Sequence record: OP142323.1
Direction: 5' to 3' (one strand)
Source of the DNA: Staphylococcus phage Lacachita
Length of the DNA stretch: 46,473 bases
A program made the position numbers and the translations under genes. Shown here piece after piece: positions 7,711-45,711 of this stretch. Within the stretch, counting starts at the first letter, position 1. The number at the start of each line of letters is the position of its first letter. The notes under the pieces were generated by a model, which worked only from the letters and a program-made list of their open reading frames with translations, ran no database searches and was not told where the DNA came from.

Positions 7711-8093
7711 TGATACAGGAATACATAAAGGACAAGCTAGAGACTAAGTTTAATGACTTAGAATGGAGTGTTGACTATAAAACGTCTGACGGTAATTATG
7801 GCGCTGTCTACTATGACGGTGGCGATATGCCTGATAGAAACGACTTAAAAGGCCGACACGTAAATTATCAAGTAGTTATACAACATGAAGATTTTGAACG
7901 TGCCGAAAGGATAGCGTTTGGCGTCTTTGATATAATTCATGGTATTATAGGTATTAGGACGTATCATTATGACGCGCCTTTGTTTGTTCAATACATATAT
8001 GCTGAAACAGAGCCAATGAGAATTGGTGTTATAAATGACAGAATGCTTTATACAATTAATTTCAATGCTTTAGTTTATAAAGACTATTGCTAA
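7710..8093 (+). CDS. tail completion / tail terminator protein
   Basis: 127 aa between the gp10-like gene and the major tail gene, with an ATGA-type overlap. Confidence 0.35.
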   Translation: MIQEYIKDKLETKFNDLEWSVDYKTSDGNYGAVYYDGGDMPDRNDLKGRHVNYQVVIQHEDFERAERIAFGVFDIIHGIIGIRTYHYDAPLFVQYIYAETEPMRIGVINDRMLYTINFNALVYKDYC

Positions 8094-10657: not shown

Positions 10658-13600
10658 ATGGCAAGTGTAAAGGAGTTATATGCCAAGATTAGTGCCACTG
10701 CTGAAGGTTTTAATAAGACAATGGATAGTATATCTAGCAAGACAAGACAGACAGCTAAGAGCATATCCAGTCAATCTAATATCATGAGCAAAAGCCTACA
10801 GGGTATCGGTAAAGCTGGGCGTAGCTTTGACAACATAGGAAACAAAATACAAGGCGTTTCTAAAAGTGTCGGTGGCGTTGGCGAGAAAATGACTAACTCT
10901 ATAACTAAGCCGGCAGGTGTAGCAGTTGGCGCAGTTGGTGGGCTTGTCGGTGCTTTAGGTTTCAAACGTCTTGTCGGAATGGATCAGGCAGAAGCTAAGT
11001 TAAAAGGTATCGGTCTTGCAGGGAAAGACGTTACAAAAATACAAAACCAAGTATCTAAGTCTATCGAAGGTAGTATGACAACTATGGCCGAAGGTACTGA
11101 CTTAGCAGCCGGTGCTTTAGGATCAGGTGTTAAAGAAGGAAAAGAATTAGAAAAATACATAAAAGCAGCAGGTAACGCTGCAGTAGGTGCTAATGTACCT
11201 GTAGCTGAAATGGGACAAATATTCAGTCGTGTTAAAGGTCAGGGTAAATTAGCCGGAACTGAATTAGAAATGATGGAAGAACGTTTACCGGGATTCACTT
11301 CTACAATGGCAAGAGAAATGGGCTTGTCTATGGAAGAATTTAGAGACAAAGTTTCAGCCGGAGAGGTTGGATACGATGAGTTCTTAAAAGGTGTTGAAGC
11401 TAGAGCGGGTAAATCGGCAGAAGCTCAATCTCAAACATTTATGGGTATGCTTACCAACACTAAAAACTATTTAGGAATGATTGGAGAAGCATTTCTACAA
11501 CCCGCATTTAAAGAGGCTAAAGTTGTATTAGCTGATCTCGTTAATACTTTAAATAGCGATTCCCTAAGAGAAAGCGCTGCAGAAGCAGGTAAAGTAGTAG
11601 CGCCAGCCTTTGCTTTCCTAGCTAAAGCAGTTACAGGAACAATTAAAGCATTCTTAAATCTACCCGGTCCAGTATTAGGCGCAATTGGTGCTTTAGGTGG
11701 TATATTAATTGCTATTGGTCCGGTTCTTACAGGTTTTGCTAAATTAGGTGGTATGATCGGCGGAATGTTCAAAACGTTCGGATCATTACTATCATTCGTG
11801 TCAGCATTAAACCCAGTAGGACTAATTATCATGGGTATTGTTGCGGCAGTCGCAGCATTAGGTACAGCTTTCTATATCGCTTATCAGAAATCAGAAACAT
11901 TTAGAAACTTCATCAATGGTATAGGCACTATGATAAGTGGTGCCATTGGTTGGATTAAACAATTTGGTCAAGCAATCGGTGCGCTTTTCTCAGGAAATAC
12001 TGGAGAGGGCGTTAACATATTAGAAAAGCTAGGTTTTAATCAAAGTCAAATATCAGCGATACAGGGTATGGTATCAAGTCTTAAAAGTATATTTACTGAA
12101 TTAGGACGAGTGTTAGCGATAACATTTAATGAGATGAAAGGCGCTTGGAATGGAGTAGCTAGTGCATTCACTGGATCAATTCCATTTATTAAAATGGCGT
12201 TCTCTAACATGGTAGCAATACTAGGTCCGATATTTATGGCTTTAGTGAATGTTGTTAAGACAGTGTTCACAACTATAATTTCTGTCATTCGTGGCGCTTT
12301 CCAAATGATACAGGGCGTTATACAAATATTTAGCGGTCTTGTACAGGGCGACTGGTCGTTAGTATGGCAAGGCGTAGTAAATATATTCAAAGGTTTCTTT
12401 GGTATATTAGTTGCCTTAGTTAAACAGCTTGTCATGACGCTATTCTATATAGTTAAAGGATTGGCTACTAGTTTAGGTAATGCCTTACGCATTGCTTTTG
12501 GCGTCGTCAAAAATATCATCGTCGGTATTTTCAACGGTATCAAGTGGGTAGTAGTTACAATATTTAAAAGCATGGTTAATGCTATCGTTGTCAGCGCACA
12601 AACATTGTGGTTGAGAATAACACAAATTTTTAATGCACTTAAATTTGCTATTACAGCTATATGGAATGGAATTAAATTTGTTTCTGTAGCAGTATGGAAT
12701 AGTATTAAGTTTTTAGTAGTTGGTTTCGTTCGAACTATGAAAAATTTAATAATGATGATACTTGGCGGACTGAAAGCCGGTATATTGGCAATTTGGAACG
12801 GAATCAAGTTTGTCACAATGTTTGTTTGGAATTTAATCAAGAATAGAGTTATAGCCAATGCTCGTATCATGAAGAATTTAGTCGTTGCCATATTTAGAAG
12901 TTTAAAAGCTATCGTTTCTGCTATATGGAACGGACTTAAAAACTTTGTCATCTTAGTATGGAACACATTAAAAAATAGAGTAATTGCAATTACTCGTATT
13001 TTGAAAAATATCGTAATTTCAGTAATACGAATAATGAAAAATATCGTTATTGCAACATTTAGAATAATGAAGAACATTGTTATTGCAGTGTGGAACGCAT
13101 TGAAAAATAGAGTTATCGCAGTTGCTCGTATCATGAAAAACATTGTTATTACAGTTATTCGAACATTGAAGAATGTTGTTATTAGCATATTTAGAGCATT
13201 GAAAAATGTAGCGATTGCTATTTGGAATGGAATTAAAAATAAAGTTATTTCTTTAGCTCGAACAATGAAGAACGTTGCTATATCAATAGTTCGCGCAATG
13301 AAAAACGCGATACTTGGAATTTGGAAAGCGCTCAAAAACGTAACAATTTCAATTTGGAACGCAATCAAAAATAAAGTAATCGGTTTAGCTCGCGGTTTGA
13401 AGAGCGCTGCACTTAGTGTTTTCCGTTCATTGAAGTCAGGTATTACTGGAATATGGAATGGTATAAAATCTGTTACATCTAAAGTATGGAACGGAATTAA
13501 AAATGTAGCTATCGGCGCAGCTAAAGGAATGAAAAGTAAAGTCTTAGGTTTATTTGGTTCCATGAAAAACGGAATCAAAAAACAAATTGATAACATCAAA

Positions 13601-15490
13601 GGATTTATGGATAAAATGGTTGGTGGCGTTAAGAAAGGACTTAACGGACTAATCAAAGGTGTTAACTGGGTAGCCGGCAAACTAGGTATGGACAAGCTAC
13701 CTGAAATAAAACTACATAGCGGTACTGTGGGTGGTGGACGTCTTGTAAGAAACGGAAAACTAAACACAGGCACAATGGCTACTGTAGGAGATAAAGGTCG
13801 AGGAAATGGACCGGGTGGCTTTAGAAATGAAATGATACGCTATCCTAACGGAAGAATGGCACTAACACCTAACAAAGATACAACAACATTCTTGCCTAAA
13901 GGTTCAAGCGTATATAGCGGCGCACAAACGCACTCATTATTAAGTAGTTTGCCTAAGTTTTCTACTGGTACTAATCCATTAGGCAACGGAAACAAAAAGC
14001 CTAAGAAAAAGAAAAAAGGCGACAACTTATTTGGCGACGCGTGGGACGCAACTAAAGCTGGTGCAGCTAAAGTCGTTGACGGTGGTAAAGCAGTTGTTAG
14101 CAAAACACTCGACGCTGCCGCAAAAGGTAAAGAGTGGTTAAGTGATAAAGTCGGAGATGTGCTTGACTGGATAGACAAACCAGAAAAACTATTGGATAAA
14201 GTTCTTGAAGGCTTTGGAGTTAACTTAGATGGTTTCGGAATAACTAAAGCTGCTGAATTACCTTACAACATGATGAAAGGTATGTTCGGTAAACTTAAAA
14301 AAGGTGCTATAGAGAAATTTAAAGAATGGTTTGAAGAAAGTAGTAGTGGCGACGGTGGATACATTGACCTTTCTAAAGGTATAAACTTTGGTTTCGCTAG
14401 AACAGCTGCAGAAGCAGCATCTCAGGGTTATCCATTCGCAAGACCTCACTATGGTTTGGATATAAATTATAAATACGACAAAGTATATTCAACGCTTTCT
14501 GGTATGGCAACAGGTAGTTCAGGTTGGAACGGTGGTTTCGGTCAAAACATGTGGATAAGAGCCAAAAACGGAGTAGAAGCCATATACGGACACCTTCACA
14601 AACTAGCCTTTCATGGTAAAAAACGTGTCAAACCGGGAACTTACTTAGGTATTTCCGGTGGGGATCCGGGACGTGACGGACAAAACGCCGGAAGTTCTAC
14701 AGGTCCACACTTACACTATGAAATGCGCTGGAATGGAGTTCCTAAAGATCCAACAAGCTGGTTGAAGAAAAACAATGGTGGCGGCAAAGTCGGTGGTAGT
14801 GGATCAGGAAACGCACGTAAGGCAATCAAGAAAGCACAAGCAATTTTAGGCGGTCGTTACAAATCATCTTATATTACTGAACAAATGATGAGAGTCGCCA
14901 AACGTGAATCCAACTTCCAAGCTGACGCAGTCAACGACTGGGACGTCAATGCTAGAGCTGGAACACCTTCTAAAGGTATGTTCCAAATGATTGAACCATC
15001 TTTTAAAGCATATGCTAAAAAAGGACATGGGAACATATTAAATCCAACTGACCAAGCTATATCAGCTATGCGCTACATTGTAGGTAAATGGGTTCCTATT
15101 ATGGGAAGTTGGAAAAGTGCGTTTAAACGTGCAGGAGATTATGCTTATGCTAATGGTGGTATTGTTAATTCGCCAGAGTTAGCATGGATTGCCGAAGGTG
15201 GTTTCAGTGAGTCTGTTATAAGTCATGACCCTAGAAAACGTATGAGAAGTAAAAGCATACATGATAAAACAGGCAAAATGCTCGGTGTTGATGATGATAC
15301 GCAAATGTTACGAGAAATCATTAATATTCTTGAAGCTGGCAACCACTTACAATCTGTTAATAATAACGCTGTTAATAGATTGTTAGATAAAAACGTCGAC
15401 ATCTATATGGATAAGAAAAAACTAACACAAGCGGTCAACAATCAGTCAGCGGACTTATTCAATTCCGGTATGTATAATCAGGGAGGTTAA
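10658..15490 (+). CDS. tail tape measure protein with C-terminal M23 peptidase and lytic transglycosylase (SLT) domains
   Basis: 1610 aa. The N-terminus has Gly/Ala-rich TM-like segments. The central region is about 30 copies of an 11-aa repeat. The M23 region carries 'HYGLDINY...GPHLHYEMR'. The SLT region carries 'RESNFQADAVNDWD...GMFQMIEPSF'. Confidence 0.85.
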   Translation: MASVKELYAKISATAEGFNKTMDSISSKTRQTAKSISSQSNIMSKSLQGIGKAGRSFDNIGNKIQGVSKSVGGVGEKMTNSITKPAGVAVGAVGGLVGALGFKRLVGMDQAEAKLKGIGLAGKDVTKIQNQVSKSIEGSMTTMAEGTDLAAGALGSGVKEGKELEKYIKAAGNAAVGANVPVAEMGQIFSRVKGQGKLAGTELEMMEERLPGFTSTMAREMGLSMEEFRDKVSAGEVGYDEFLKGVEARAGKSAEAQSQTFMGMLTNTKNYLGMIGEAFLQPAFKEAKVVLADLVNTLNSDSLRESAAEAGKVVAPAFAFLAKAVTGTIKAFLNLPGPVLGAIGALGGILIAIGPVLTGFAKLGGMIGGMFKTFGSLLSFVSALNPVGLIIMGIVAAVAALGTAFYIAYQKSETFRNFINGIGTMISGAIGWIKQFGQAIGALFSGNTGEGVNILEKLGFNQSQISAIQGMVSSLKSIFTELGRVLAITFNEMKGAWNGVASAFTGSIPFIKMAFSNMVAILGPIFMALVNVVKTVFTTIISVIRGAFQMIQGVIQIFSGLVQGDWSLVWQGVVNIFKGFFGILVALVKQLVMTLFYIVKGLATSLGNALRIAFGVVKNIIVGIFNGIKWVVVTIFKSMVNAIVVSAQTLWLRITQIFNALKFAITAIWNGIKFVSVAVWNSIKFLVVGFVRTMKNLIMMILGGLKAGILAIWNGIKFVTMFVWNLIKNRVIANARIMKNLVVAIFRSLKAIVSAIWNGLKNFVILVWNTLKNRVIAITRILKNIVISVIRIMKNIVIATFRIMKNIVIAVWNALKNRVIAVARIMKNIVITVIRTLKNVVISIFRALKNVAIAIWNGIKNKVISLARTMKNVAISIVRAMKNAILGIWKALKNVTISIWNAIKNKVIGLARGLKSAALSVFRSLKSGITGIWNGIKSVTSKVWNGIKNVAIGAAKGMKSKVLGLFGSMKNGIKKQIDNIKGFMDKMVGGVKKGLNGLIKGVNWVAGKLGMDKLPEIKLHSGTVGGGRLVRNGKLNTGTMATVGDKGRGNGPGGFRNEMIRYPNGRMALTPNKDTTTFLPKGSSVYSGAQTHSLLSSLPKFSTGTNPLGNGNKKPKKKKKGDNLFGDAWDATKAGAAKVVDGGKAVVSKTLDAAAKGKEWLSDKVGDVLDWIDKPEKLLDKVLEGFGVNLDGFGITKAAELPYNMMKGMFGKLKKGAIEKFKEWFEESSSGDGGYIDLSKGINFGFARTAAEAASQGYPFARPHYGLDINYKYDKVYSTLSGMATGSSGWNGGFGQNMWIRAKNGVEAIYGHLHKLAFHGKKRVKPGTYLGISGGDPGRDGQNAGSSTGPHLHYEMRWNGVPKDPTSWLKKNNGGGKVGGSGSGNARKAIKKAQAILGGRYKSSYITEQMMRVAKRESNFQADAVNDWDVNARAGTPSKGMFQMIEPSFKAYAKKGHGNILNPTDQAISAMRYIVGKWVPIMGSWKSAFKRAGDYAYANGGIVNSPELAWIAEGGFSESVISHDPRKRMRSKSIHDKTGKMLGVDDDTQMLREIINILEAGNHLQSVNNNAVNRLLDKNVDIYMDKKKLTQAVNNQSADLFNSGMYNQGG
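12600..13560 (+). repeat. coding tandem repeats (33-nt / 11-aa period) inside the TMP gene
   Basis: Repeated units of the form 'AIWNGIKNKVIA' / 'RIMKNIVIAxF'. The periodicity leaves the reverse strand open as a 442-aa artefact ORF. Confidence 0.8.
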
Positions 15491-23583: not shown

Positions 23584-23928
23584 ATGGCAATGGAATGGAA
23601 ACAAGTGTTTTTATATGACGGAACACAAATACTTTTAAAACCTGATATGTTTGGCAATTATGAATATCCGAAAGAAAAATGGACGGATATTAAACCACCG
23701 CAAGGAATTTATACACCGTTTCGTTTTGATGGGGAAAAGTGGATTGGTAGCACTAAAGAAGAATGGGAAGCAAGACAACCTAAAATAGAAATACCACCAA
23801 GCGAAGAGGAAGAACTTCATCTTGAACTTATAAAAACAAACATAGAACTAAAAAAAGAAGTTTCGCAACTCAATGAAGATGTAGCAAATCTTGTAACAAT
23901 GTTAGTTCAAAAACAAGGAGGCAATTAA
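23584..23928 (+). CDS. hypothetical protein (possible fibre assembly/chaperone)
   Basis: 114 aa with RBS AGGAGG, immediately after the fibre gene. Confidence 0.35.
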   Translation: MAMEWKQVFLYDGTQILLKPDMFGNYEYPKEKWTDIKPPQGIYTPFRFDGEKWIGSTKEEWEARQPKIEIPPSEEEELHLELIKTNIELKKEVSQLNEDVANLVTMLVQKQGGN

Positions 23929-23929
23929 T

Positions 23930-24079
23930 ATGTATAGAACATTTAAAAGATTATGGAAAAAAGGACTTTTAGATGAAAAAACAGTGTATGACGCAGTTGT
24001 GGTTGAGTTTATAACTGCCGAACAATACAAAGAAATAGTCGGAGAGGAATTTGTGCCGCCTAAAGACGATGAAGTGTAG
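23930..24079 (+). CDS. small hypothetical protein (49 aa)
   Basis: ATG is coupled to the upstream stop (TAATATG). It fills the gap before the membrane protein gene and falls below the ORF-track length cutoff. Confidence 0.3.
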   Translation: MYRTFKRLWKKGLLDEKTVYDAVVVEFITAEQYKEIVGEEFVPPKDDEV

Positions 24080-24089
24080 GAGGGGTATT

Positions 24090-24527
24090 ATGAACAAATA
24101 CTTTACACCGAACGATAAACTAGCTACCCTCTCTCTATTTGGATTAGGCACATATAATGGTGCTAGAGGCTTTTTTTGGGTACTAAGTCAAGAAGTGGTG
24201 GTACACGATAGCAAATTCTATGTTGCTTTAAATGAATTCATGCCTATATGGATATGGGGCGTTATATTAATGATATTTGGCCTGTGTTTAATACTCTCTA
24301 GTGTTTTATATAGTAGAACAGATATAAGCAACAAATCATATTATTTAATGACAATTGGAGGGTTTGGTTGTGGGGTTATGCAATTTTTAATGGCATCTGC
24401 CAGTTTATACAACGCTATAAACTGGTTGACGCCAATAAACTTTACTATCTTAGCAGCGTGGTGTGGTTTTGTAGGCTATATAGGAGTGTTAGGAGTAAAT
24501 GACAAACAACGATTTTCTAAAGATTAG
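24090..24527 (+). CDS. integral membrane protein (4 predicted TM helices)
   Basis: Start at ATG 24090 after GTAGGAGGGG; the listed start at 24051 has no RBS. Four hydrophobic helices are visible. Confidence 0.4.
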   Translation: MNKYFTPNDKLATLSLFGLGTYNGARGFFWVLSQEVVVHDSKFYVALNEFMPIWIWGVILMIFGLCLILSSVLYSRTDISNKSYYLMTIGGFGCGVMQFLMASASLYNAINWLTPINFTILAAWCGFVGYIGVLGVNDKQRFSKD

Positions 24528-25185: not shown

Positions 25186-25272
25186 TGACTTCAATAAGAA
25201 CATATAAACAAGCGTCGAAGTATCTAAAGTATATGGAAGGTAAAGCATGGAATCCGGACAAAGCTTATGGAT
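25185..25272 (+). CDS. endolysin exon 1 (N-terminus of CHAP domain)
   Basis: Translation 'MTSIRTYKQASKYLKYMEGKAWNPDKAYG', with RBS GAGGAGGA. Unspliced, the frame stops at 25299-25301. Confidence 0.7.
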
Positions 25273-26277
25273 TAATTGATAGTCCATATAAAACCTATTG
25301 AATTGCTGGGAACCCCTAACGTAAAGTCGAGGGCAATCAGCAGCGAAGCCTTTGTGGTAATAGCAAAGGAACGTTCAACGACTAAGTGCATACAATCGTA
25401 TGACAGCGGTAGGTATTCTTGATACAAATAAATGACATGCTATAATCAAGACAACAATTACGGAAAGGTGTTTTGATTATGGTTAATAGTGTTGAAACTG
25501 GAAAAAGATATAACAATATAAAAGTTTTAGAGTATTCTCATACAAACAAACACAACAAGAGAAAATACAAATGTAAATGTATGGTATGTGGCAAAATTTT
25601 TATAACGTTAGGCACTACAGTTAAAACAGGTAGGCTAAAAAGTTGTGGTTGTTTATCTAATAAAAAAGCCCAAGAAAGAATGAAAAAGCATGGAATGCAT
25701 GGCACACAAATATATAATCGTTGGAAAGGCATGAAATCAAGATGTAGGAGTAAATCATATCATGCTTATCATAGATATAACGGTAAAGGTATAACTGTTT
25801 GTGAACGGTGGTTAAATGATTTTATGAATTTTTACAATGATATGAATGATACATTCTTTGAAGGTGCTGAATTAGATAGAATAGACAATAGCAAAGGTTA
25901 TTATCCTGAAAATTGTAGGTGGGTTACGCACAAGCAAAACTGCAACAACAGAGATAAATATAAAAATAACACCGGTTATACAGGAATACATTTTGGAAAG
26001 AAAAATAAAACTTATCAAGTTAATATGTGTCACAAAAGAAAAAGTATTTATATCGGAAGTTACAAAAATATAAAAGATGCAGTAAATGCAAGAAAATCAT
26101 TTATATTAAAATTCAACAAAGATAATGGGACAAATTACAAATATGAAGAGTATCAAGAATAATGATATAGTCTAGTCTTATATGAAAGTATAAGGTTTCT
26201 AAAACAGAAACTATTTAACGTTACACAAAATTATAGAGAAATTTATAATCAGAGAGGCGTTAAATATAATATTAACG
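25273..26277 (+). mobile_element. group I intron interrupting the endolysin gene (carries an HNH homing endonuclease ORF)
   Basis: P1 pairing: exon GGAU (25269-72) with intron GUCC (25282-85), including the U.G wobble at the splice site. P10 pairing: intron AUUGAU (25275-80) with 3' exon AUCAAU (26278-83). The intron ends in G26277. Length 1005 nt, which preserves frame. Confidence 0.7.
25479..26162 (+). CDS. intron-encoded HNH-family homing endonuclease
   Basis: 227 aa from ATG 25479 after GAAAGGTG. Basic and Cys-rich, with an HNH_3-like 'LDRIDNSKGYYPENCRWVTHKQN' segment. It lies wholly inside the intron. Confidence 0.7.
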   Translation: MVNSVETGKRYNNIKVLEYSHTNKHNKRKYKCKCMVCGKIFITLGTTVKTGRLKSCGCLSNKKAQERMKKHGMHGTQIYNRWKGMKSRCRSKSYHAYHRYNGKGITVCERWLNDFMNFYNDMNDTFFEGAELDRIDNSKGYYPENCRWVTHKQNCNNRDKYKNNTGYTGIHFGKKNKTYQVNMCHKRKSIYIGSYKNIKDAVNARKSFILKFNKDNGTNYKYEEYQE

Positions 26278-27605
26278 ATCAATGCTTTGATACAGCTAAT
26301 CAGTATTGGATGTACTTATTCGGACATATGTTAAAAGGCATAGGCGCTGCAGATATTCCTACATGGAACAATTTTGAAGGAGAAGCGAAAGTTTATAAAA
26401 ACACAGTAGACTTTTTAGCTAAACGTGGAGATTTAGTTATATTCAACAGAAATTACGGTGGCGGTTATGGACACGTCGGCATCGTTATAAAAGCGACACT
26501 AGATTACATAGTGGTCATAGAACAAAATTGGCTTGGCGGTGCTTATTGGACACCACCAGAAGTAACTACACGTCGCACACATGGCTATGATTTTCCTATG
26601 TTTTTTATACGCCCCTACTTTGCAAAAGAAACGAAAACAAACGCTGTTAAAAGTAAAATGACACCTAAGAAAAAACCTAAAATGAACAAAGGTAAGAAAA
26701 TATTACTTGTAGCCGGACATGGTAAAGGTGCTTATTCAAACGATCCGGGTGCAGTAGCTAATGGATATAATGAGCGCGATTTCAACAGAAAAGAAGTTAT
26801 ACCTAGAGTTAAGAAATATCTTGAGAGTGTAGGTAACACTGTCGTTCTATATGGTGGTAAGAAAATGAACCAAGATTTATATCAAGACACGTTATACGGT
26901 CAAAGGGTAGGAAATTATAAAGATTACGGTTTATATTGGGTTAAAAACAATGTTAAACCTGACGCGATTGTAGAATTTCATCTCGACGCTGCAAGCCCTA
27001 AGGCTAGTGGCGGTCATGTTATAGTAAGTGATAAATTCCCTGCCGATGATATAGACAAAGCATTGTCTAGTACATTAGATAAAACAGTAGGAAAAATAAG
27101 AGGTGTTACACCTAGAAATGATCTATTAAATGCAAATGTTACTGGATCATTAAACTTAAACTACAGATTGATAGAACTAGGTTTTATAACATCTAAAAAA
27201 GATATGAACTACATCACGAAAAATATTGATGACTTTACTAAAAGAATTGCAGAGGCAATCAACGGTAGACAGATCGAAGCGCCAAAGAGCAAACCTTCTA
27301 AAGCTAAAAATACATGGAATTGGTCGGGTACTTTCTACCCTAATGCGCCTAAAGAAGGTATTAGAGTTAGAAGATCGCCCGGCTTAAATGGTGCTATTGT
27401 CGAAAGTGGTTCGTGGTTATACCGAAAAACAGATTGGGTTAAATTTGATAGAGTTATCAAAAAGGATGGATATTGGTTTATTAGGTTTAAATATCAAGCG
27501 CCGGGATCTAGCAATAAACACTTCTACTGTGCAGTATGCAAAATTACCGATGAGCAACAAAAAATAAAAAACGAGAAATATTGGGGAACCATAGAGTGGA
27601 AATGA
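26278..27605 (+). CDS. endolysin exon 2 (rest of CHAP, Amidase_3, SH3b)
   Basis: The spliced junction reads '..[14 protein letters not shown]..', restoring the CHAP catalytic Cys context. The CHAP His sits in 'GYGHVGIV'. Amidase_3 is marked by '[18 protein letters not shown]'. The SH3b-like domain is the C-terminal about 90 aa. Confidence 0.75.
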
Positions 27606-27683
27606 TTTACAAACAAAAATATTGGGTATATAATAATAACCATAAAACTATTATTCATTTTTCCCACTTAATAAATTTAACTT

Positions 27684-27714
27684 AGCCACGTCGTAATAGA
27701 CGTGGTTATTTTTA
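27684..27714 (+). terminator. rho-independent terminator after endolysin
   Basis: Stem CCACGTC / GACGTGG followed by TTATTTTTAT. Confidence 0.6.
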
Positions 27715-27793
27715 TGTGATACTATTAATTACGTAACCTAAAAGGTTATTAATTTAATTGTCCCTTTTAATTTGATACTATATTATATATTAT

Positions 27794-27830
27794 GACAAAC
27801 GATATCCCCCTCTCGTTTGTCTTTTTTTAT
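27794..27830 (+). terminator. second rho-independent terminator
   Basis: Perfect 9-bp stem GACAAACGA / TCGTTTGTC followed by TTTTTTT. Confidence 0.65.
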
Positions 27831-27837
27831 TTTAATG

Positions 27838-27866
27838 TTTACATTCTTAAATACTAATGCTATAAT
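27838..27866 (+). promoter_or_regulatory. consensus sigma-A-type promoter (TTTACA-17-TATAAT) at the lysis/early junction
   Basis: -35 TTTACA at 27838-43, 17-nt spacer, -10 TATAAT at 27861-66. RBS AGGAGG and ATG 27897 lie downstream. Confidence 0.6.
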
Positions 27867-27896
27867 TAGTATGTAATATTTAAGGAGGGAAACAAA

Positions 27897-28073
27897 ATGA
27901 AAAATAGTACAAAAAGTTTTATAACTTCTGAATTAGTATTCGTTGTAATGAGTATATTGTTGATGAGATTGTTTTATTTCACAACAGCGATAGGGTTATC
28001 AATTTTTATTAGTGCAGCGTTTTATTTATTTTTTGTAAGTTATGTATTCGATAAGGAGGATAAAAAATGTTAG
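27897..28073 (+). CDS. small membrane protein (58 aa), first gene after the junction promoter
   Basis: Two hydrophobic segments. Its stop overlaps the ATG of the next gene. It falls below the ORF-track length cutoff. Confidence 0.35.
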   Translation: MKNSTKSFITSELVFVVMSILLMRLFYFTTAIGLSIFISAAFYLFFVSYVFDKEDKKC

Positions 28074-29646: not shown

Positions 29647-30324
29647 ATGACTGAAGTTTACAAATACAAAGGTAACGGAGACGGAACTTATAACATTCAA
29701 ATAGATAACGTGAAGATACCATTCAAAAATTTAGAAATGTTAACACGTGGCTTAGGAACAGAAGCGGAATTAAAGTTTATTGATCCTGACGACATATCAC
29801 ATAAACAACGTAAACTAATATTTGCATTGCTAGGCGATATTGAAGAACACACAGGCGATCCAGTAGAGTATCGTCGACACAGATTAACATTAGAGTTTAT
29901 GGCTTATAAAAACATAGATGAATTTAGTTTATCTAACTGCAGCATGACAGACGCACGAGAGTTTATAGAGTTTATATTAGCGTTCATATTTAGAAATAAT
30001 ATACCTATCACTTATGACACATCAGACTTACTCAAAGAAGATAAAGCCTATTTATACTATGCAACAATTAATCGTAAGTGCGTTATATGTGGCGAAGAGA
30101 ATGCACAACTTGCACATCACTATCACATCGGTAGAGGTATGAACAGAAACAAAATGGATCATTACGGTTACGAAGTATTAGCTTTGTGCCATAAACACCA
30201 TCGCTTACAACACAACATAGGTATAAGAACGTTTGATAAAAAATACGCTTTAGATAAGTCTTGGATCAAAGTTGATGAGCGATTAAATAAAATGTTGAAA
30301 GGACAAAAATACGAGGAGAATTAA
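29647..30324 (+). CDS. Cys/His-rich putative HNH-motif nuclease
   Basis: 225 aa. 'CVICGEENAQLAHHYHIGRG...CHKHHRLQHN' resembles an HNH/zinc-binding motif. Confidence 0.35.
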   Translation: MTEVYKYKGNGDGTYNIQIDNVKIPFKNLEMLTRGLGTEAELKFIDPDDISHKQRKLIFALLGDIEEHTGDPVEYRRHRLTLEFMAYKNIDEFSLSNCSMTDAREFIEFILAFIFRNNIPITYDTSDLLKEDKAYLYYATINRKCVICGEENAQLAHHYHIGRGMNRNKMDHYGYEVLALCHKHHRLQHNIGIRTFDKKYALDKSWIKVDERLNKMLKGQKYEEN

Positions 30325-30326
30325 TT

Positions 30327-30509
30327 ATGAGAGAGAAAATAGAAGCAGTAATCAATTCTGATTTATCAGGATACGCAATCGAAAAGCATTGTAAAACTGT
30401 ATCGCAAAATACAGTAAGCAGCCTAAGAACAGGTAAATACGAAATAGATAATTTAAGATTTAAAACTTGCGAAGAGTTATCAAAGGTTTATGACGATCTT
30501 ATTAAATGA
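30327..30509 (+). CDS. hypothetical protein (60 aa)
   Basis: Translationally coupled ORF. A UUCG-tetraloop hairpin plus U-tract at 30509-30528 follows it. Confidence 0.3.
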   Translation: MREKIEAVINSDLSGYAIEKHCKTVSQNTVSSLRTGKYEIDNLRFKTCEELSKVYDDLIK

Positions 30510-30537
30510 GTGCTTCGGCACTTTTTATATTCGATAG

Positions 30538-30566
30538 TTTACATTTTATGTTGTAAATGTTAAAAT
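30538..30566 (+). promoter_or_regulatory. early promoter P-A (TTTACA-17-TAAAAT) with embedded TTTACA/TGTAAA inverted repeat
   Basis: -35 at 30538-43 and -10 at 30561-66. The spacer matches the 34802-18 spacer at 14 of 17 positions. Confidence 0.5.
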
Positions 30567-30594
30567 TATTTTAGGTTTTTAAGGAGGAATGATT

Positions 30595-34256: not shown

Positions 34257-34772
34257 ATGATTGAATGGAAACCGATTGAAGGTTATGAAGGAAAATACTA
34301 TATAAACCAATACGGGCAAATAATAAGTCATTACTTTAAAGAGCCTAGAATGTTAAGTATTAAAAGTACAGACAACGAGTATTTAAGAGTAAATCTAACT
34401 CGCAAAGGGAAACGAAAAAGAAGGTCAATACACAGACTTGTTGCTGAAACATTTAAGCCTAATACAACCGGAGAAGATTTGCAGATAAATCACATAGACG
34501 GGGACAAATTTAATAACCATGTAGACAATTTAGAATGGTGTACGTGTAGAGATAATATATCTCACGCTTTCGAAAAAGGATTGAACCAAAACAACAACAG
34601 GATAATATTAACCGATATAGAAACAAATGAAGAGACACACTTTATAAGTCAAAGGAGAGCGAGTGAATACTTAGGACAAAAACAAAACTATATATGCAGA
34701 ATGTTTTCTAAAGGTATAAACATCGTCGAAAGCAAGAACGGTAAAATATACAAAGTAAAGCGGGAAAATTAA
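34257..34772 (+). CDS. free-standing HNH homing endonuclease (NUMOD4 + HNH_3)
   Basis: 'WKPIEGYEGKYYINQYGQI' (NUMOD4) and 'INHIDGDKFNNHVDNLEW' (HNH). Confidence 0.8.
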   Translation: MIEWKPIEGYEGKYYINQYGQIISHYFKEPRMLSIKSTDNEYLRVNLTRKGKRKRRSIHRLVAETFKPNTTGEDLQINHIDGDKFNNHVDNLEWCTCRDNISHAFEKGLNQNNNRIILTDIETNEETHFISQRRASEYLGQKQNYICRMFSKGINIVESKNGKIYKVKREN

Positions 34773-34793
34773 TTCCCGTTTTATTATTATTTT
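34761..34793 (+). terminator. terminator after HNH gene
   Basis: Stem CGGGAA / TTCCCG followed by TTTTATTATTATTTT. Confidence 0.5.
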
Positions 34794-34795
34794 AG

Positions 34796-34824
34796 TTTAC
34801 AATATTTGTTGTAAATGTTACAAT
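34796..34824 (+). promoter_or_regulatory. early promoter P-B (TTTACA-17-TACAAT) with TTTACA/TGTAAA inverted repeat and downstream TTACAAT-GTAT-ATTGTAA palindrome
   Basis: Near-identical to the promoter at 30538-66. An additional palindrome lies at 34817-34838, before the XRE-type gene. Confidence 0.5.
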
Positions 34825-34856: not shown

Positions 34857-35048
34857 ATGTACTTTTACGACGAAGAGGAAATGCGAAACCGTTTGAAAGA
34901 AAAAGGTTTGAGCATTAGAGAATTAAGCAAACGAGTTGATTTGCCATACAATACAGTTTACGCGATATTCAAAGGTCAAAGTAACATAGACGGAGTGAGA
35001 TTGAGAGTTTACAAAAAGATTGTAAATGAATTGTGGAAAGGAGAGTAA
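34857..35048 (+). CDS. XRE-family HTH transcriptional regulator (Cro-like)
   Basis: 'LSIRELSKRVDLPYNTVYAIFKG' is a classic HTH. 63 aa. Confidence 0.5.
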   Translation: MYFYDEEEMRNRLKEKGLSIRELSKRVDLPYNTVYAIFKGQSNIDGVRLRVYKKIVNELWKGE

Positions 35049-36901: not shown

Positions 36902-37144
36902 ATGACTAAAAACACATTAAACGATTTGAACAACCACTTATTCGCGCAACTCGAAAGATTAGGAGATGAAGAACTAGCAGGAGATGAGTTGAAAGAAGAG
37001 CTTGAACGTTCTAGGGCTATATCAGACATAGCTAGAAATGTTGTGAGTAACGGCAACCTTATTTTACAAGCGCATAAGTTTAAGGATCAAAGAATAGACA
37101 ATGAAAACCAACTGCCTGAAATGTTAGAGGATAAAAAGAGATGA
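36902..37144 (+). CDS. hypothetical acidic protein
   Basis: ATG 36902 follows TTGGAGGA. Confidence 0.3.
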   Translation: MTKNTLNDLNNHLFAQLERLGDEELAGDELKEELERSRAISDIARNVVSNGNLILQAHKFKDQRIDNENQLPEMLEDKKR

Positions 37145-38214
37145 CACGTTTGACATGGAAACAAAAGCACATTGACTTTGTTAATTCTATATACAAGCAA
37201 AACAAAGCAAAAGATGTGACGAAAATGTTTAACGATAAATTTGGAACTGATTTAAGTGTTAGTGCAGTAAGTAAGAAAATAAGGTATCTAAAAGGGTTAA
37301 ACGGAAGTTATAAAAACGAAAGTGAAAGGAATGTGAACAATAAACCTATAGGAACGATAAGAAAGGGTTTGAATGGATATTTAGAAATAAAAATAAAAAA
37401 CATAAAATATAACGGCGATAAAAATTGGAAAAAGTATCATGAATATATTTGGGAAAAAGAGAATGGTAAAACGATACCTGAAAAATATAAGGTAATTTTT
37501 CTTAATGATAACAAGAGAGATTGTCGTATAGAAAACCTTCGTTTAACAACTCGTCATGTCTATAGAGTTATGATTAGTAAGAAACTATTTTCTAATGATC
37601 CTAAAGAAACGATTAAAGGTATAAAAGAAGCTGAAACATTTATAAAATCTAAAAAGCCTAAGAGAACATCGTTTAATTGGGAAAAGAAACACATTGACTT
37701 TTTAAAAAAACATGCAAAAGGTAGTAACACAAAAGAGATAACAAAAAAGTTCAACGATCATTTCAACACTAATAACAGTGATATGTCAGTACGTACACAA
37801 GTGTATAATCATAATTTAAAATTCGATAACCACCCCGGAAGATTTAAAAAAGGGAATATACCACCGGGAGAATATAAAATAGGAGACAAAGCTATAGACG
37901 GAGACGGTGGTGTGATAATAAAAATAGCAAATGATCATCATAATTATAAAAGGAATTGGAAGAAGTACCATATTTATTTATGGGAAAAGTATAAAGGAAC
38001 CGTACCTGAAGAACACTTAGTCATATTTTTAAATAATGATAACAGAGACTTTAGAATAGAAAATTTAGAACTTGTCCCTAGAAGTATTTATCAAATGATG
38101 ATATTAAACGACTTAGTATATGACGATCCAGAACTTACGAAAACAGGTATTAATATAGCTAAGTTATTAAAAAAACAAACTAAAAATTCAGTGAAAGAGA
38201 TGAAAAAAAGATAA
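37141..38214 (+). CDS. tandemly duplicated HNH_3-like (possibly degenerate) DNA-binding/endonuclease protein
   Basis: Two about-170-aa repeats. Each has 'W..KHIDF...TK.FND.F' and 'KYH.Y.WEK..G..PE...VIFLN..NRD.RIENL'. The His of the canonical 'DHIDGN' motif is replaced (FLNDN). Confidence 0.5.
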   Translation: MTRLTWKQKHIDFVNSIYKQNKAKDVTKMFNDKFGTDLSVSAVSKKIRYLKGLNGSYKNESERNVNNKPIGTIRKGLNGYLEIKIKNIKYNGDKNWKKYHEYIWEKENGKTIPEKYKVIFLNDNKRDCRIENLRLTTRHVYRVMISKKLFSNDPKETIKGIKEAETFIKSKKPKRTSFNWEKKHIDFLKKHAKGSNTKEITKKFNDHFNTNNSDMSVRTQVYNHNLKFDNHPGRFKKGNIPPGEYKIGDKAIDGDGGVIIKIANDHHNYKRNWKKYHIYLWEKYKGTVPEEHLVIFLNNDNRDFRIENLELVPRSIYQMMILNDLVYDDPELTKTGINIAKLLKKQTKNSVKEMKKR

Positions 38215-42841: not shown

Positions 42842-43138
42842 TTGACTATGAAACCTATATGTATTATATTTATTATAGCAATTATATATTGCTAATGATT
42901 TAATCCTTTGTTTATCTTTTTCTTGTAATTTGTAATTTGATTTTCTCATTATCATTTCTGACTGCATGACTTACTTAGTACGCCGGCTATTTTAGTCGGT
43001 GTATTTTTTTGTCTGATTTTAATAATGAATAAAACATAACTCGTGTTTATCTCGTATATATTTTGTTATATTTTCGTGCATATCTTGTTCGTATTGTGTT
43101 ATAATAGAGTATAAGCAAAAACAGAAAGTAGGGAAGGT

Positions 43139-44211: not shown

Positions 44212-45711
44212 ATGGAAATTATAAACAAAAGTATATATGACATTATAGATTATGATGACAACCCTAGATACAACGACGAGGCAGTAGATTATGTAAAAGA
44301 AAGCATTAAAGAATTTGGTTTCAAAGTACCGATTATTATTGATGAAAATGATGTAATTATAGCAGGACATACAAGAAAGAAAGCAGCACTCGAGATAGGT
44401 ATTAAAGAGGTGCCAGTTATTGTTGCCGATGATCTTACACCGCAACAAGTTGACGCATTTAGATTGGCCGACAATAAAGTCGCTGAATTTAGTGAGTGGG
44501 ATGAAGATTTATTGATGAGTGAACTCAATAAACTAGATGATTTAGACATGAGTGCATTCGGATTTGAAGATATGGAGTTAGACTTAGAAGATACTGAAAT
44601 AGAAGAAGAAGAGATTGAAGAAGATGAAGTGGTAGAAATACCGGAAGAACCTAAGTCTAAATTCGGACAAATATATCAACTCGGCAATCATAGGCTCATG
44701 TGTGGCGACAGTACAAGTGATGAAGATGTTAGCAAGCTGATGAACGGACAACAGGCGTCGTTAGTGTTTACTGATCCACCTTATGGAGCTAAGAAACAAA
44801 AAGACGGTGTACTCAATGACAATCTTAACTATGATAGCTTGTTAGAATTTAATAAGTTATGGATACCACTATCATTTAAATATTTAAAAGAGAATGGCAG
44901 TTGGTATTGTTGGGGATTAGATCAACCACTTATGGATATTTACACAGAGATATTAAAGCCTAAGATTAAGAATAACGAGATTGTATTCAAAAACCTAATC
45001 ACATGGGATAAAGGATCAGGACAGGGGCAAAATTCTGATGCCCTAACTAAATATGCAACAGCAGATGAGAAGTGCTTATTTGTCGCTGGAGATGTAGACA
45101 GCATGCCTAACAATTTCTATGAAGGGTATCGACCTATATTGAACGCATTAAAAGAACAAGCCGAAAAAGTAGGATTAGGATCTAAGAAGTACAAAGAAAT
45201 CATAGGAACACAGATGTATAGTCATTACTTCTCAGACTCTCAATTCTCACTAATACCACGAGAAGTATTTGCTAAGTTAAAGAAATACTACGGAGAAGCG
45301 TGGGAATTAACATGGGAAGAATTAAGCCGTATGATAAACAAAGCTACACCCGGCCATAATGATTATGTAGAAGAGTACAGAATGAAGAGGTCATATTTCA
45401 ATAACACACATGATAATATGAATAACGTATGGCACATTAACAGAATAGTATCAGGCACAGAAGAGTATAGAGACAAAGGCCAACACGTTACACCTAAACC
45501 CCTAGCCCTATGTAGTCGAGGTATTAAATCAAGTTCTAAAGAAAAAGAAATAGTCCTCGATTTATTCGGAGGCAGTGGTAGTGTGCTTATAGCTAGTGAG
45601 TTAAACAATAGATCATGCTATACAATGGAATACCAGCCGCAATATATTGATGCAATTATAGAAAGATGGGAAAGACGTACAGGCAGAAAGGCGGAGCTAC
45701 TTAATGGATAA
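44212..45711 (+). CDS. ParB-like nuclease domain fused to beta-class N6-adenine/N4-cytosine DNA methyltransferase
   Basis: N-terminal ParBc region 'VPIIIDENDVIIAGHTRKKAAL'. Motif IV 'FTDPPYGA' precedes motif I 'VLDLFGGSGS'. Confidence 0.8.
   Translation: MEIINKSIYDIIDYDDNPRYNDEAVDYVKESIKEFGFKVPIIIDENDVIIAGHTRKKAALEIGIKEVPVIVADDLTPQQVDAFRLADNKVAEFSEWDEDLLMSELNKLDDLDMSAFGFEDMELDLEDTEIEEEEIEEDEVVEIPEEPKSKFGQIYQLGNHRLMCGDSTSDEDVSKLMNGQQASLVFTDPPYGAKKQKDGVLNDNLNYDSLLEFNKLWIPLSFKYLKENGSWYCWGLDQPLMDIYTEILKPKIKNNEIVFKNLITWDKGSGQGQNSDALTKYATADEKCLFVAGDVDSMPNNFYEGYRPILNALKEQAEKVGLGSKKYKEIIGTQMYSHYFSDSQFSLIPREVFAKLKKYYGEAWELTWEELSRMINKATPGHNDYVEEYRMKRSYFNNTHDNMNNVWHINRIVSGTEEYRDKGQHVTPKPLALCSRGIKSSSKEKEIVLDLFGGSGSVLIASELNNRSCYTMEYQPQYIDAIIERWERRTGRKAELLNG

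Follow-up and report, generated by a model that had tools for sequence, protein, structure and literature searches.

The interval at 27606-28073 of Staphylococcus phage Lacachita (OP142323; the window is the whole stretch of 46,473 nucleotides analyzed here) very probably represents the boundary between late and early transcription in a complete, circularly permuted 46.5-kb genome of the CUB-EPI_14/Sazerac/Lacachita genus. Because no integrase, attP, CI-type repressor, or antirepressor was detected, phages of this lineage appear to have no recognizable route by which to integrate, and integrated copies are absent from public assemblies. Sequence comparisons show the missing lysogeny module to be an old, lineage-wide trait and not the product of a recent deletion. 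The absence of the module from the genus is already known: papers of 2022-2026 describe these phages as being without lysogeny genes (PMC9230115, PMC10286716, PMC13064016), no integrase was found in the 46,473-bp genome of Lacachita (PMC10286716), and the lack of lysogeny proteins and the location of all genes on one strand have been reported for the genus (PMC9230115; PMC13064016). The promoters of the junction, the conservation of its non-coding part, and the RNA that may arise from promoter P1 are not discussed in the published accounts consulted; possibly new are the finding that local conservation is highest in the non-coding junction and the suggestion that P1 and terminator T1 may encode an RNA of approx. 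75 nt. The usability of the genus for treating implant infections by S. epidermidis depends on whether it is strictly lytic, a matter on which published opinions differ. The present data effectively exclude integration for the genus.

Genome organization and the absence of lysogeny genes

Lacachita, Sazerac (ON550478), Southeast (OQ623150), CUB-EPI_14 (ON325435), S-CoN_Ph27 (OR354850), 9S_3, and ct5pN1 form one genus of S. epidermidis siphoviruses, the members of which are 91-96% identical to the window in DNA over the region, have the same gene order, and use one coding strand. In particular, the window matches Sazerac at 94.2% over 4 kb (100% coverage), Southeast and CUB-EPI_14 at 91-92%, and S-CoN_Ph27 at approx. 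95% along the whole genome, while the capsid is 99% identical within the genus. The 46,473-bp window shares the features that delimit the genus, namely, more than 90% nucleotide identity, collinearity, and an integrase-less genome of approx. 46 kb encoded on one strand. An early protein of 81 aa is restricted to the genus, and the lysin gene, intron-split in Lacachita, is intron-less in CUB-EPI_14. Domain annotation of the ORFs bears out the order from terL via lysis and early/replication genes to terS that was proposed in the earlier note: terL, portal, capsid, tail, holin, intron-split lysin, junction, recombination, replication, RinB, RecU, methylase, and terS genes follow one another, all on the + strand.

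The earlier note had also seen no integrase, repressor, or antirepressor, had placed every gene on one strand, and had proposed recombinase profile searches across all frames. A Pfam search of all 68 + strand ORFs and of 113 further reading frames with a length of 55 aa or more (8,850 aa) returned no Phage_integrase, Resolvase, or Recombinase domain, and hence no tyrosine or serine recombinase, no Peptidase_S24 or Ant/Bro-N/KilA-C domain, and no CI-type repressor. On the - strand, none of the frames of 55 aa or longer matches a Pfam profile and there is no long HTH_3 protein, in agreement with the one-strand organization; the HTH proteins of the window are all small (54-91 aa) and encoded on the + strand. 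Likewise, tblastn of the int, xis, cI, cro, and ant products of phage phiETA3 against the window gave no match, and neither an Xer/dif-type integration site (within 3 mismatches) nor a tRNA-linked attP candidate was found in the window, which is devoid of tRNA genes. Remnants or pseudogene fragments of int, attP, or cI were not detectable in any frame. The possibility that the genome might continue beyond the ends of the window was not borne out, as the last 150 nt and the first 150 nt, once joined, align unbroken to a differently linearized relative (98.3% over 300 nt); the window thus closes on itself, and nothing is missing. Moreover, the exact 58-aa protein encoded in the junction turned up in 160 blocks of public assemblies, where the contigs carrying it never exceed 50 kb and the best measure 46.2-46.6 kb, and none of 185,579 species-representative genomes contains the junction sequence.

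Promoters, terminators, and the first early gene

The last late gene ends with the second exon of the endolysin (26310..27605, + strand), which comprises the C-terminal part of a CHAP domain, Amidase_3, and SH3b_P2 according to Pfam and terminates with a TGA codon at 27603-27605. The group I intron inside this gene is the sole Rfam match at both gathering and permissive thresholds; the junction itself has none at either. Between the endolysin stop and the ORF encoding the 58-aa protein lie 291 non-coding bases. The description of the approx. 460-bp junction as terminators, a promoter, and a small membrane protein gene holds, since sequence inspection located every element at the coordinates given here. 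Two strong terminators had been claimed, and two were found: T1 (27683-27716, + strand) consists of a 10-bp stem (27683-27708), a 6-nt loop, and a U-tract with a fold z of -5.1, and T2 (27794..27833, + strand) of a 9-bp stem (27794-27802/27813-27821), a 10-nt C-rich loop, UAUCCCCCUC, and a long U-run with a z of -5.6. A consensus terminator scan missed T2 solely owing to its loop of more than 8 nt; both T1 and T2 are already annotated as terminators in the GenBank records of Sazerac and Southeast.

The promoter sequence of the earlier note, described as single and perfect, was confirmed to be present; there are, however, two such sequences, and each matches the TTGACA/TATAAT consensus at 11 of 12 positions, so that neither is strictly perfect. 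P1 (27606-27634, + strand; TTTACA at 27606-27611, 17-nt spacer, TATAAT at 27629-27634) begins at the base immediately following the lysin stop codon and is invariant across 15 genomes. P2 (27838-27866, + strand; TTTACA at 27838-27843, 17-nt spacer, TATAAT at 27861-27866) has an extended -10 TG, is kept among the compared genomes apart from two spacer substitutions in Sazerac, and is predicted to be the promoter of the first early transcription unit. Sites matching at least 11 of 12 positions number three on the + strand and none on the - strand of the 46.5-kb window, where approx. 1.4 per strand would be expected by chance; thus, the presence of two within 291 nt far exceeds chance. The 27-aa ORF that spans the lysin stop and is listed as Sazerac_028 is not considered a gene, given its overlap with P1 and its position, which would be upstream of the start of the P1 transcript. 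An 8-6-8 perfect palindrome, ATACTAATgctataATTAGTAT (27851..27872, + strand), spans the -10 box of P2 and was considered as an operator; it is unique in the window, but 72% of shuffles also yield one, which makes it a weak candidate, and Sazerac has two uncompensated changes in its left arm.

Terminator-plus-promoter modules recur twice downstream on the + strand. The second module (30508..30566; TTTACA-17-TAAAAT with TG) directly precedes the HTH_36 and replication genes, and the third (34754..34824; terminator at 34754-34785 and promoter at 34796-34824, TTTACA-17-TACAAT with TG) directly precedes a gene encoding a 63-aa XRE-like HTH_3 protein (34857-35048). The earlier note had pointed to this XRE-like gene as a possible remnant of a genetic switch; it is a real gene and the first of a unit delimited by terminator and promoter, but since it has no divergent partner gene, the switch-remnant label is speculation. 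The repeated sequence TGATACTAT found behind each terminator was discarded as not significant (three copies against approx. one expected, a number equaled in 11 of 100 shuffles).

The promoter, terminator, and RNA assignments derive from consensus, folding, and conservation, and from these we infer that the promoters and terminators are active, when each unit is transcribed, and that P1 yields an RNA. Late transcripts would run from approx. 43.1 kb, cross terS, terL, and the structural genes, and, once past the lysin, stop at the tandem terminators T1 and T2. The host sigma-A RNA polymerase would start early transcription at P2, leading to expression of the DUF1270 gene and of the Gp157-ERF-HNHc recombination genes, and the modules at 30.5 kb and 34.8 kb, also of the TTTACA type, would launch transcription of the replication unit and of the early unit behind it. 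P1, located directly 3' of the lysin stop and followed by T1, would most likely give rise to a short non-coding RNA.

The first early gene (27897-28073, + strand) encodes a protein of 58 aa with two predicted membrane helices (DUF1270/phrog_369) and strong hydrophobicity over residues ~7-50. Its ribosome-binding site, AAGGAGGG (27882-27889, + strand), is also annotated as such in Sazerac, the record of which already lists a 'transmembrane protein' at this position. The ORF overlaps the next one (start at 28067) by 7 nt, and the two appear to be translationally coupled. The Pfam DUF1270 profile was matched at positions 1-52 of 53 with 26.5 bits against a cut-off of 27 bits when the protein was scanned within a concatenate; PF06900 (DUF1270) is precomputed for an identical 58-aa protein, and phrog_369 matches with E = 1.6e-11. 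The protein is 38% identical to ORF12 of the temperate phage phiETA3, which is located in the early-right operon of that phage.

Temperate relatives and the age of the junction

The earlier note remarked on features resembling those of temperate staphylococcal phages, which proved correct for the lysis cassette, distal tail, ERF/Gp157/HNHc_6, RinB, and DUF1270, but not for the rest of the genome, including the capsid. In particular, phiETA3 (Phietavirus) and IMG/VR prophages of coagulase-negative staphylococci encode lysins 79-86% and holins 53-60% identical to those of Lacachita (79% aa identity for the phiETA3 lysin), and temperate staphylococcal siphoviruses also share HNHc_6 (50%), RinB (61%), SSB (42%), DUF1270 (38%), and a Peptidase_G2 tail protein (approx. 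52%). In contrast, the head and packaging proteins of phiETA3 have no match in the window, and in the GenBank phage collection the capsid has no staphylococcal relatives beyond its own clade. In temperate staphylococcal siphoviruses, the interval from the lysin to the early genes is occupied by attP, xis, cI, cro, ant, and an oppositely oriented integrase gene, all of which are missing from Lacachita. Temperate relatives with 82-86% identical lysins have a - strand integrase 0.4-1.8 kb beyond the lysin, and at 21 IMG/VR loci the DNA similarity of the window to the lysins of temperate phages ends at 27605-27609.

This pattern raises the question of whether Lacachita is a recent deletion derivative, i.e., a clear-plaque or virulent mutant from which attP-int-cI-cro was excised, leaving a scar at 27606-27896. 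The shared modules listed above would be expected of such a mutant, and the DUF1270 homologue of phiETA3 lies approx. 1.9 kb downstream of cro in the early-right operon, so that the early operon of Lacachita looks like a 5'-truncated version of it; moreover, integrated relatives of the head module occur in chromosomes of Bacillales and in S. xylosus, on the 97-kb contig JBSGLX010000007. Nevertheless, the earlier note's suggestion of a deletion derivative found no support, and this origin is highly improbable. The junction is common to all 15 genomes compared, including Sazerac, Southeast, CUB-EPI_14, S-CoN_Ph27, and 10 metagenomic or run assemblies, and is identical in isolates and metagenomes from three continents; it is strongly constrained and not decaying, and no frame holds fragments of int or cI pseudogenes. 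A comparison with temperate genomes, proposed as a way of locating a deletion scar, revealed no collinear temperate parent. In the search for such a parent, the BppU-like tail protein and the DnaB helicase had no useful relatives in IMG/VR, and the loci anchored on the tail and those anchored on the capsid belonged to different phages. A capsid profile search showed that sister clades, viewed within 10-kb flanks of their capsid loci, share the head-tail module at 50-60% identity; one representative is the 53.5-kb contig UViG_2593339076_000001.

The same layout is found in a lineage far removed in its capsid. TPWB-09 (PQ358088) and similar 47-kb metagenomic contigs have, like Lacachita, a lysin, promoter, terminator, second promoter, and early genes in succession; in TPWB-09, a promoter begins 5 nt past the lysin stop, a position equivalent to that of P1, 77 of 77 genes are on one strand, and there is no integrase. 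The phage also shares with Lacachita the DUF1270-like protein, Gp157, ERF, and ParB_N-methylase genes before terS. However, identity to Lacachita is only approx. 53% in the capsid and approx. 71% in the DNA of the recombination genes, with intergenic regions largely unalignable, and TPWB-09 differs in having one terminator instead of two, two extra small genes ahead of the DUF1270 homologue, and early-region genes annotated 'Ant' and 'repressor'. Taken against a deletion, this evidence means that any loss was ancient and lineage-defining or that the genome was built by module exchange.

A comparable situation was reportedly described by Lucchini, Desiere, and Bruessow in 1999 for virulent Streptococcus thermophilus phages (e.g., Sfi19) and their temperate relative Sfi21. 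Like Sfi19, Lacachita is a one-strand siphovirus in which a short segment separates the lysin from the early genes in place of a lysogeny module, and most other modules are common with temperate phages of the same host. Unlike Lacachita, the Sfi19 system reportedly has a close collinear temperate partner, and cro- and ant-like remnants persist.

A possible carrier state and the conserved P1-T1 segment

A phage without integrase might nonetheless be temperate if it persisted as a plasmid-like or carrier-state episome, with the junction promoters, and possibly the P1 RNA or a small HTH protein, providing unconventional immunity. The authors who described Lacachita propose a plasmid-like state (PMC10286716), and such a state would fit the phenotypes reported for the phage: transduction, a 100-fold lower plating efficiency on transductants, and intermittent turbid plaques, along with a 46.7-kb copy that forms a separate contig in the assembly of an S. 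epidermidis isolate (PMC10286716). An episome would also explain why no copy in public assemblies exceeds the length of the genome, one of the three small HTH proteins (HTH_36, HTH_3, HTH_17) could be a repressor, and the putative P1 RNA is predicted to pair with the ribosome-binding site of the first early gene in the manner of c4 RNA, although this pairing is non-specific (see below). The published ParB argument for a plasmid prophage is, however, unsound because the 499-aa 'ParB' is a fusion protein, with ParB_N at residues 16-73 and an N6_N4 DNA methylase at residues 183-483: it scores 39.9 bits against TIGR00180 parB_part, below the cut-off of 58.45 bits and over residues 19-106 only, and its best full-length match is phrog_498, a DNA methyltransferase. 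Domain searches of the window found neither a ParB/Spo0J protein with HTH and dimerization domains nor a ParA ATPase, the components of P1-/N15-like ParAB systems, and no ParA/CbiA domain, plasmid Rep, or CI-like repressor. Divergent promoters serving a leftward gene are absent, as is any gene on the - strand; Gp157 lies beside ERF in the recombination module and is classed with Mu Gam-like end protection, not with immunity; and the 'temperate' call of PhageAI is expected from modules held in common with temperate phages. An episomal life cycle is therefore considered unlikely, and the sole immunity candidates that lack another explanation are the three small HTH proteins and the P1-T1 segment with its unusual conservation.

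Diversity (pi) in the junction is 0.008, whereas the lysin reaches 0.056 and the genes downstream 0.088-0.105. The estimate of conservation is partly biased given that 10 of the 14 compared genomes were retrieved by identity of the adjacent 58-aa protein. This bias fades fast, as an ORF 170 nt further downstream already shows a pi of 0.088. Within the junction, the region of the putative P1 RNA has a pi of 0.0025 against 0.056-0.105 in flanking genes and is invariant among the compared genomes, so it carries no covariation signal. P1 and T1 may encode an RNA of approx. 75 nt (27641..27716, + strand), with an unpaired, U-rich 5' part bearing a UCCC motif followed by the T1 hairpin. This RNA is predicted to form a duplex of -20.8 kcal/mol with the ribosome-binding site and AUG of the 58-aa gene, a value reached by none of 1000 shuffles. 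It is the best pairing among 68 ribosome-binding regions, but only marginally so: two others lie at approx. -20, and other windows of the genome reach -25 kcal/mol. The 58-aa gene was therefore rejected as a specific sRNA target, the pairing not being unique to one ribosome-binding region, and no equivalent pairing was found in TPWB-09. Assessed as a type I toxin-antitoxin or sRNA pair, the junction offers both a gene for a small hydrophobic peptide and a putative RNA complementary to the start region of that gene, with a predicted pairing that is not specific to it.

Short regulatory RNAs of this kind are found in other systems. The c4 RNA of phages P1 and P7 is a promoter-proximal regulatory RNA that is complementary to a ribosome-binding site and acts in the immunity of plasmid prophage P1, and staphylococcal sRNAs (the Rsa RNAs and RNAIII) bind Shine-Dalgarno sequences via unpaired UCCC motifs. 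Like these RNAs, the putative P1 RNA is short, is located upstream on the same strand, and combines an unpaired C-rich anti-RBS motif with a strong terminator hairpin; unlike them, it is only predicted, its pairing is not target-specific, and it shows neither covariation nor an Rfam match. That an abundant early P1-T1 RNA of approx. 75 nt controls expression by binding Shine-Dalgarno regions, that of the DUF1270 gene first, through an unpaired UUUCCC motif is a doubtful proposition. If true, it would represent an integrase-less staphylococcal phage with RNA-based control of its first early gene, and the RNA might underlie the carrier state or the partial resistance to superinfection described for Lacachita. 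A P1 transcript that reads through to T2, the loop of which is also C-rich, would be approx. 195 nt long.

Gene content and the published record

Phage Lacachita is very probably non-integrating, and the junction between its lysin stop and first early genes (27606-28073) a plain boundary between late terminators and early promoters. A Pfam scan of all 68 plus-strand ORFs detected no integrase, resolvase, large serine recombinase, S24 repressor or antirepressor domain. A second scan took in every remaining stop-to-stop stretch of 55 aa or longer, whatever its reading frame among the six (113 frames, 8,850 aa); it found no lysogeny domain, and its sole match was a small XkdX gene left off the ORF list. 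The integrase, excisionase, cI, cro and ant of the temperate siphovirus phiETA3 gave no tblastn match to the window. The earlier note had reported from the sequence that integrase, repressor and antirepressor were absent, and these searches bear it out. Moreover, the last and first 150 nt of the window, once joined, align in one piece (98.3%) to S-CoN_Ph27, a record cut elsewhere, which makes the window one complete circular permutation of a genome that does not continue beyond its ends.

The late genes run from terL through a portal-sized protein, a MuF-like protein, scaffold, capsid (Phage_cap_E), tail genes and tape measure to Dit, Tal, a Peptidase_G2 fibre, a BppU-like protein, XkdX, an SPP1-type holin and the split lysin, which the junction follows. 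Beyond it lie DUF1270, Gp157, ERF, HNHc_6, HTH_36, a replisome organiser, DnaB helicase, SSB and several HNH endonucleases; then a 63-aa HTH_3 protein, DUF3310, nucleoside deoxyribosyltransferase, YopX, MazG, RinB, DUF1514 and RecU; and lastly a 54-aa HTH_17 protein, SNase, a ParB_N-methylase fusion and terS. The XkdX-family gene (49 aa, 23930-24080, between 23584-23928 and 24051-24527) falls below the 50-aa ORF-list threshold and was recovered solely by the six-frame scan. An antisense ORF of 442 aa (12445-13773, minus strand) has no Pfam match; it falls where the tape-measure gene is repetitive, and most likely arises as an artefact of repeat composition. The load of HNH-type nucleases is unusually high, comprising NUMOD4+HNH_3 (34257-34772), a double HNH_3 protein (37141-38214), an intron ORF (25473-26162) and HNHc_6 (29647-30324), and their presence differs among genomes: in one contig (L014) SSB is preceded by an additional NUMOD4/HNH gene, and in another (L007) the double HNH protein is split.

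The missing lysogeny module is a correct observation but already known for these S. epidermidis siphoviruses, the genus having been described three times; as the main claim is already published, its overall interest is low. The description of CUB-EPI_14 gives 'no lysogeny-associated proteins', a single coding strand and a predicted pac site, and records that PhageAI called the phage 'temperate' (PMC9230115); no integrase was found in Lacachita (PMC10286716), whose genome (OP142323) is linearised at the terminase gene, as in its relatives. Lacachita shows transduction, a 100-fold lower plating efficiency on transductants and, intermittently, turbid plaques, and its authors propose a plasmid prophage or pseudolysogeny, citing a 'ParB' and a Gp157 'resistance protein' (PMC10286716). 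These phenotypes, together with an isolate assembly in which one contig stands alone at genome length, fit a carrier state. They would also fit some true episomal lysogeny, which is rated improbable. The 'ParB' (499 aa, 44212-45711) fuses ParB_N (residues 16-73) to an N6_N4 DNA methylase (residues 183-483), reaches 39.9 of the 58.45 bits required by TIGR00180, the ParB partition family, and has a DNA methyltransferase PHROG as its best full-length family; it was thus rejected as a partition protein. Gp157, encoded beside ERF, falls into the class of Mu Gam-like end protection, and the window contains no ParA, CI-like repressor or minus-strand gene. The genomic argument made in print for a plasmid prophage fails when tested. 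In contigs resembling TPWB-09, a divergent relative of the genus, two such fusions stand in tandem just before terS (e.g., TPWB-09, L134).

Junction elements and proposed transcription units

All junction elements lie on the plus strand. The first base after the endolysin TGA (27603-27605) opens a sigma-70-type promoter, P1 (TTTACA 27606-27611, 17 nt, TATAAT 27629-27634), which is followed by a predicted intrinsic terminator, T1 (stem-loop 27683-27708, then UUUUUAU); the RNA 27641-27718, which includes T1, has a predicted fold of -17 kcal/mol (z = -5.1). In the second terminator, T2, the stem arms 27794-27802 and 27813-27821 enclose a 10-nt loop, UAUCCCCCUC, and a long U-run follows (fold z = -5.6); the consensus terminator scanner missed T2 solely because this loop exceeds 8 nt. 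GenBank records of Sazerac and Southeast already annotate both terminators, and that of Sazerac also names a 'transmembrane protein'. Another promoter, P2 (TTTACA 27838-27843, 17 nt, TATAAT 27861-27866, with an extended -10 TG), precedes the ribosome-binding site AAGGAGGG (27882-27889) of a 58-codon ORF (27897-28073); the following ORF begins at 28067, before this one stops. The product of the 58-codon ORF is hydrophobic from residues ~7 to 50 and matches Pfam DUF1270 and phrog_369, a PHROG without known function. The terminators and tiny membrane ORF described previously are therefore present, but there are two promoters instead of one. Sites with at least 11/12 consensus promoter matches number three on the plus strand of the window and none on the minus strand, against a chance expectation of ~1.4 per strand; two of the three fall within the 291 non-coding junction bases and the third inside the lysin intron. 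This group I intron (25263-26309; Rfam RF00028, 60.9 bits, 25263-25530) splits the lysin gene and carries a 229-aa ORF (25473-26162) without a Pfam match, just ahead of which lies a near-consensus promoter, TTGATA-16-TATAAT with TG (25419-25446). CUB-EPI_14 and one contig (L012) have a 471-aa lysin and no intron.

The module of a terminator and a TTTACA-17-TAnAAT promoter with TG occurs twice more on the plus strand, at 30508-30566 before HTH_36 and the replication genes, and at 34754-34824 before the XRE-like HTH_3 gene. The promoters of these modules, P3 (30538-30566) and P4 (34796-34824), share TAGTTTACA-N8-TGTAAATGTTAnAAT, their -35 box forms one arm of an inverted repeat TTTACA/TGTAAA, and each precedes a small HTH gene (HTH_36 at 30589, HTH_3 at 34857), an arrangement that suggests autoregulation. 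The XRE-like HTH_3 protein, which would be the first product of one early unit, may well be a Cro-like regulator of the repeats common to P3 and P4. Its gene had previously been considered a possible remnant of the genetic switch; however, nothing marks it as a cI/cro relic, because it has no divergent partner. A further strong terminator (42977-43005) lies in the longest non-coding gap (42842-43138, 297 nt), ahead of the HTH_17 gene and the methylase-terS-terL block, and is followed by TGTTATAAT (43097-43105) ahead of the 54-aa HTH_17 (excisionase-fold) gene. The late operon probably starts in this gap, and possible roles of the HTH_17 protein are late regulation or assistance to terS. In the simplest reading, host polymerase would drive three early units from P2, P3 and P4, and a late unit would extend from near 43.1 kb through the structural and lysis genes to T1 and T2.

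The junction in relatives of the phage

Over this region Sazerac matches the window at 94% identity, and Southeast, CUB-EPI_14 and S-CoN_Ph27 do so at 91-92%; the non-coding junction is essentially identical across 15 genomes, including four GenBank relatives and ten metagenome or sequencing-run assemblies. In a public assembly collection, 160 indexed blocks contain the exact 58-aa protein. The longest contig carrying it never exceeds 50 kb and belongs to the 20-50 kb class in 68 of these blocks; the best, at 46.2-46.6 kb, equal one genome length. All ten contexts shown have the lysin and then, 291 nt on, the DUF1270 gene. A 32-nt string taken from T1 is absent from 185,579 species-representative genomes, and neither these nor the contigs carrying the protein record an integrated copy.

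TPWB-09 differs considerably from the window (capsid 53% identical, recombination genes ~71% identical in DNA) but likewise has one coding strand (77/77 genes) and no integrase. It carries TTTACA-17-TATAGT 5 nt past the lysin stop, then a terminator, another promoter of the form TTTACA-17-TATAGT and small early genes, one of them for a DUF1270-like protein. As judged from these sequences, the integration and immunity module has been missing throughout the divergence of the genus from TPWB-09.

The lineage is a mosaic that has its lysis, distal-tail and recombination modules in common with temperate staphylococcal phages, as would also be expected of a deletion derivative of such a phage, the alternative raised in the earlier note. 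In temperate-type phages and prophages, the Peptidase_G2 tail protein is ~52% and the lysin up to 86% identical to those of the window, and wherever sequence runs on in loci sharing Peptidase_G2 (L020, L036, L066, L070, L088, L089), an opposite-strand integrase lies 0.4-1.8 kb beyond the lysin. In 21 loci of this kind, DNA similarity ends at 27605-27609, at the stop codon, and none matches the junction or first early genes. Comparison with temperate relatives gave no recognisable scar; with one junction common to 15 genomes and the same plan in TPWB-09, a recent deletion is most improbable, and the earlier interpretation is borne out in part.

Outside the clade, the GenBank phage collection contains no staphylococcal capsid relatives, the next best being Bacillus PM1 and Geobacillus TP-84 (30%). 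Sister clades in IMG/VR have the entire head-tail module in common with it at 50-60%; for terS to Tal, aa identity ranges over 30-69% in L116-L131 (IMG/VR) and L133. The morphogenesis module does have integrated relatives, since homologues of terL (59-67%) occur in Bacillales chromosomes of megabase size and in a 97-kb S. xylosus contig. The latter (L133, JBSGLX010000007) has the head-tail copy at its start and different early genes (IstB-like loader, PVL_ORF50, Bro-N), and is probably an integrated temperate relative of that module.

The conserved P1-T1 segment

Nucleotide diversity across 14 genomes is as low as 0.008 for the 291 non-coding junction bases and 0.0025 from P1 to T1, against 0.056 for the lysin exon, 0.088 for the 81-aa ORF and 0.105 for Gp157; the estimate is biased, as 10 of the 14 were retrieved via the adjacent 58-aa protein, yet diversity is high again 170 nt on. 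A promoter straight after the last late stop codon, with a strong terminator within ~50 nt, is by its predicted elements the anatomy of a small RNA gene. The predicted RNA of ~75 nt has an unpaired 5' part with UUUCCC and could form a duplex of -20.8 kcal/mol with the RBS and AUG of the 58-aa gene, an energy reached by 0/1000 dinucleotide shuffles of either partner; the duplex is present in the co-fold minimum. Its specificity is weak, with the ribosome-binding regions 30589 and 41554 reaching about -20 and other genome windows -25. TPWB-09 has no comparable pairing, the segment has no Rfam match, and the region, being invariant, shows no covariation. For these reasons, a functional RNA encoded between P1 and T1 is rated plausible and control of the DUF1270 gene by it is a hypothesis only. 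This highly conserved segment is the sole lead worth following experimentally. TPWB-09 retains the promoter-terminator-promoter order despite its diverged sequence. A 13-nt string, ATACTATATTATA, is common to both junctions, although they are otherwise unalignable, and lies directly upstream of the last junction terminator (27775-27787 in the window, 7750-7762 in TPWB-09).
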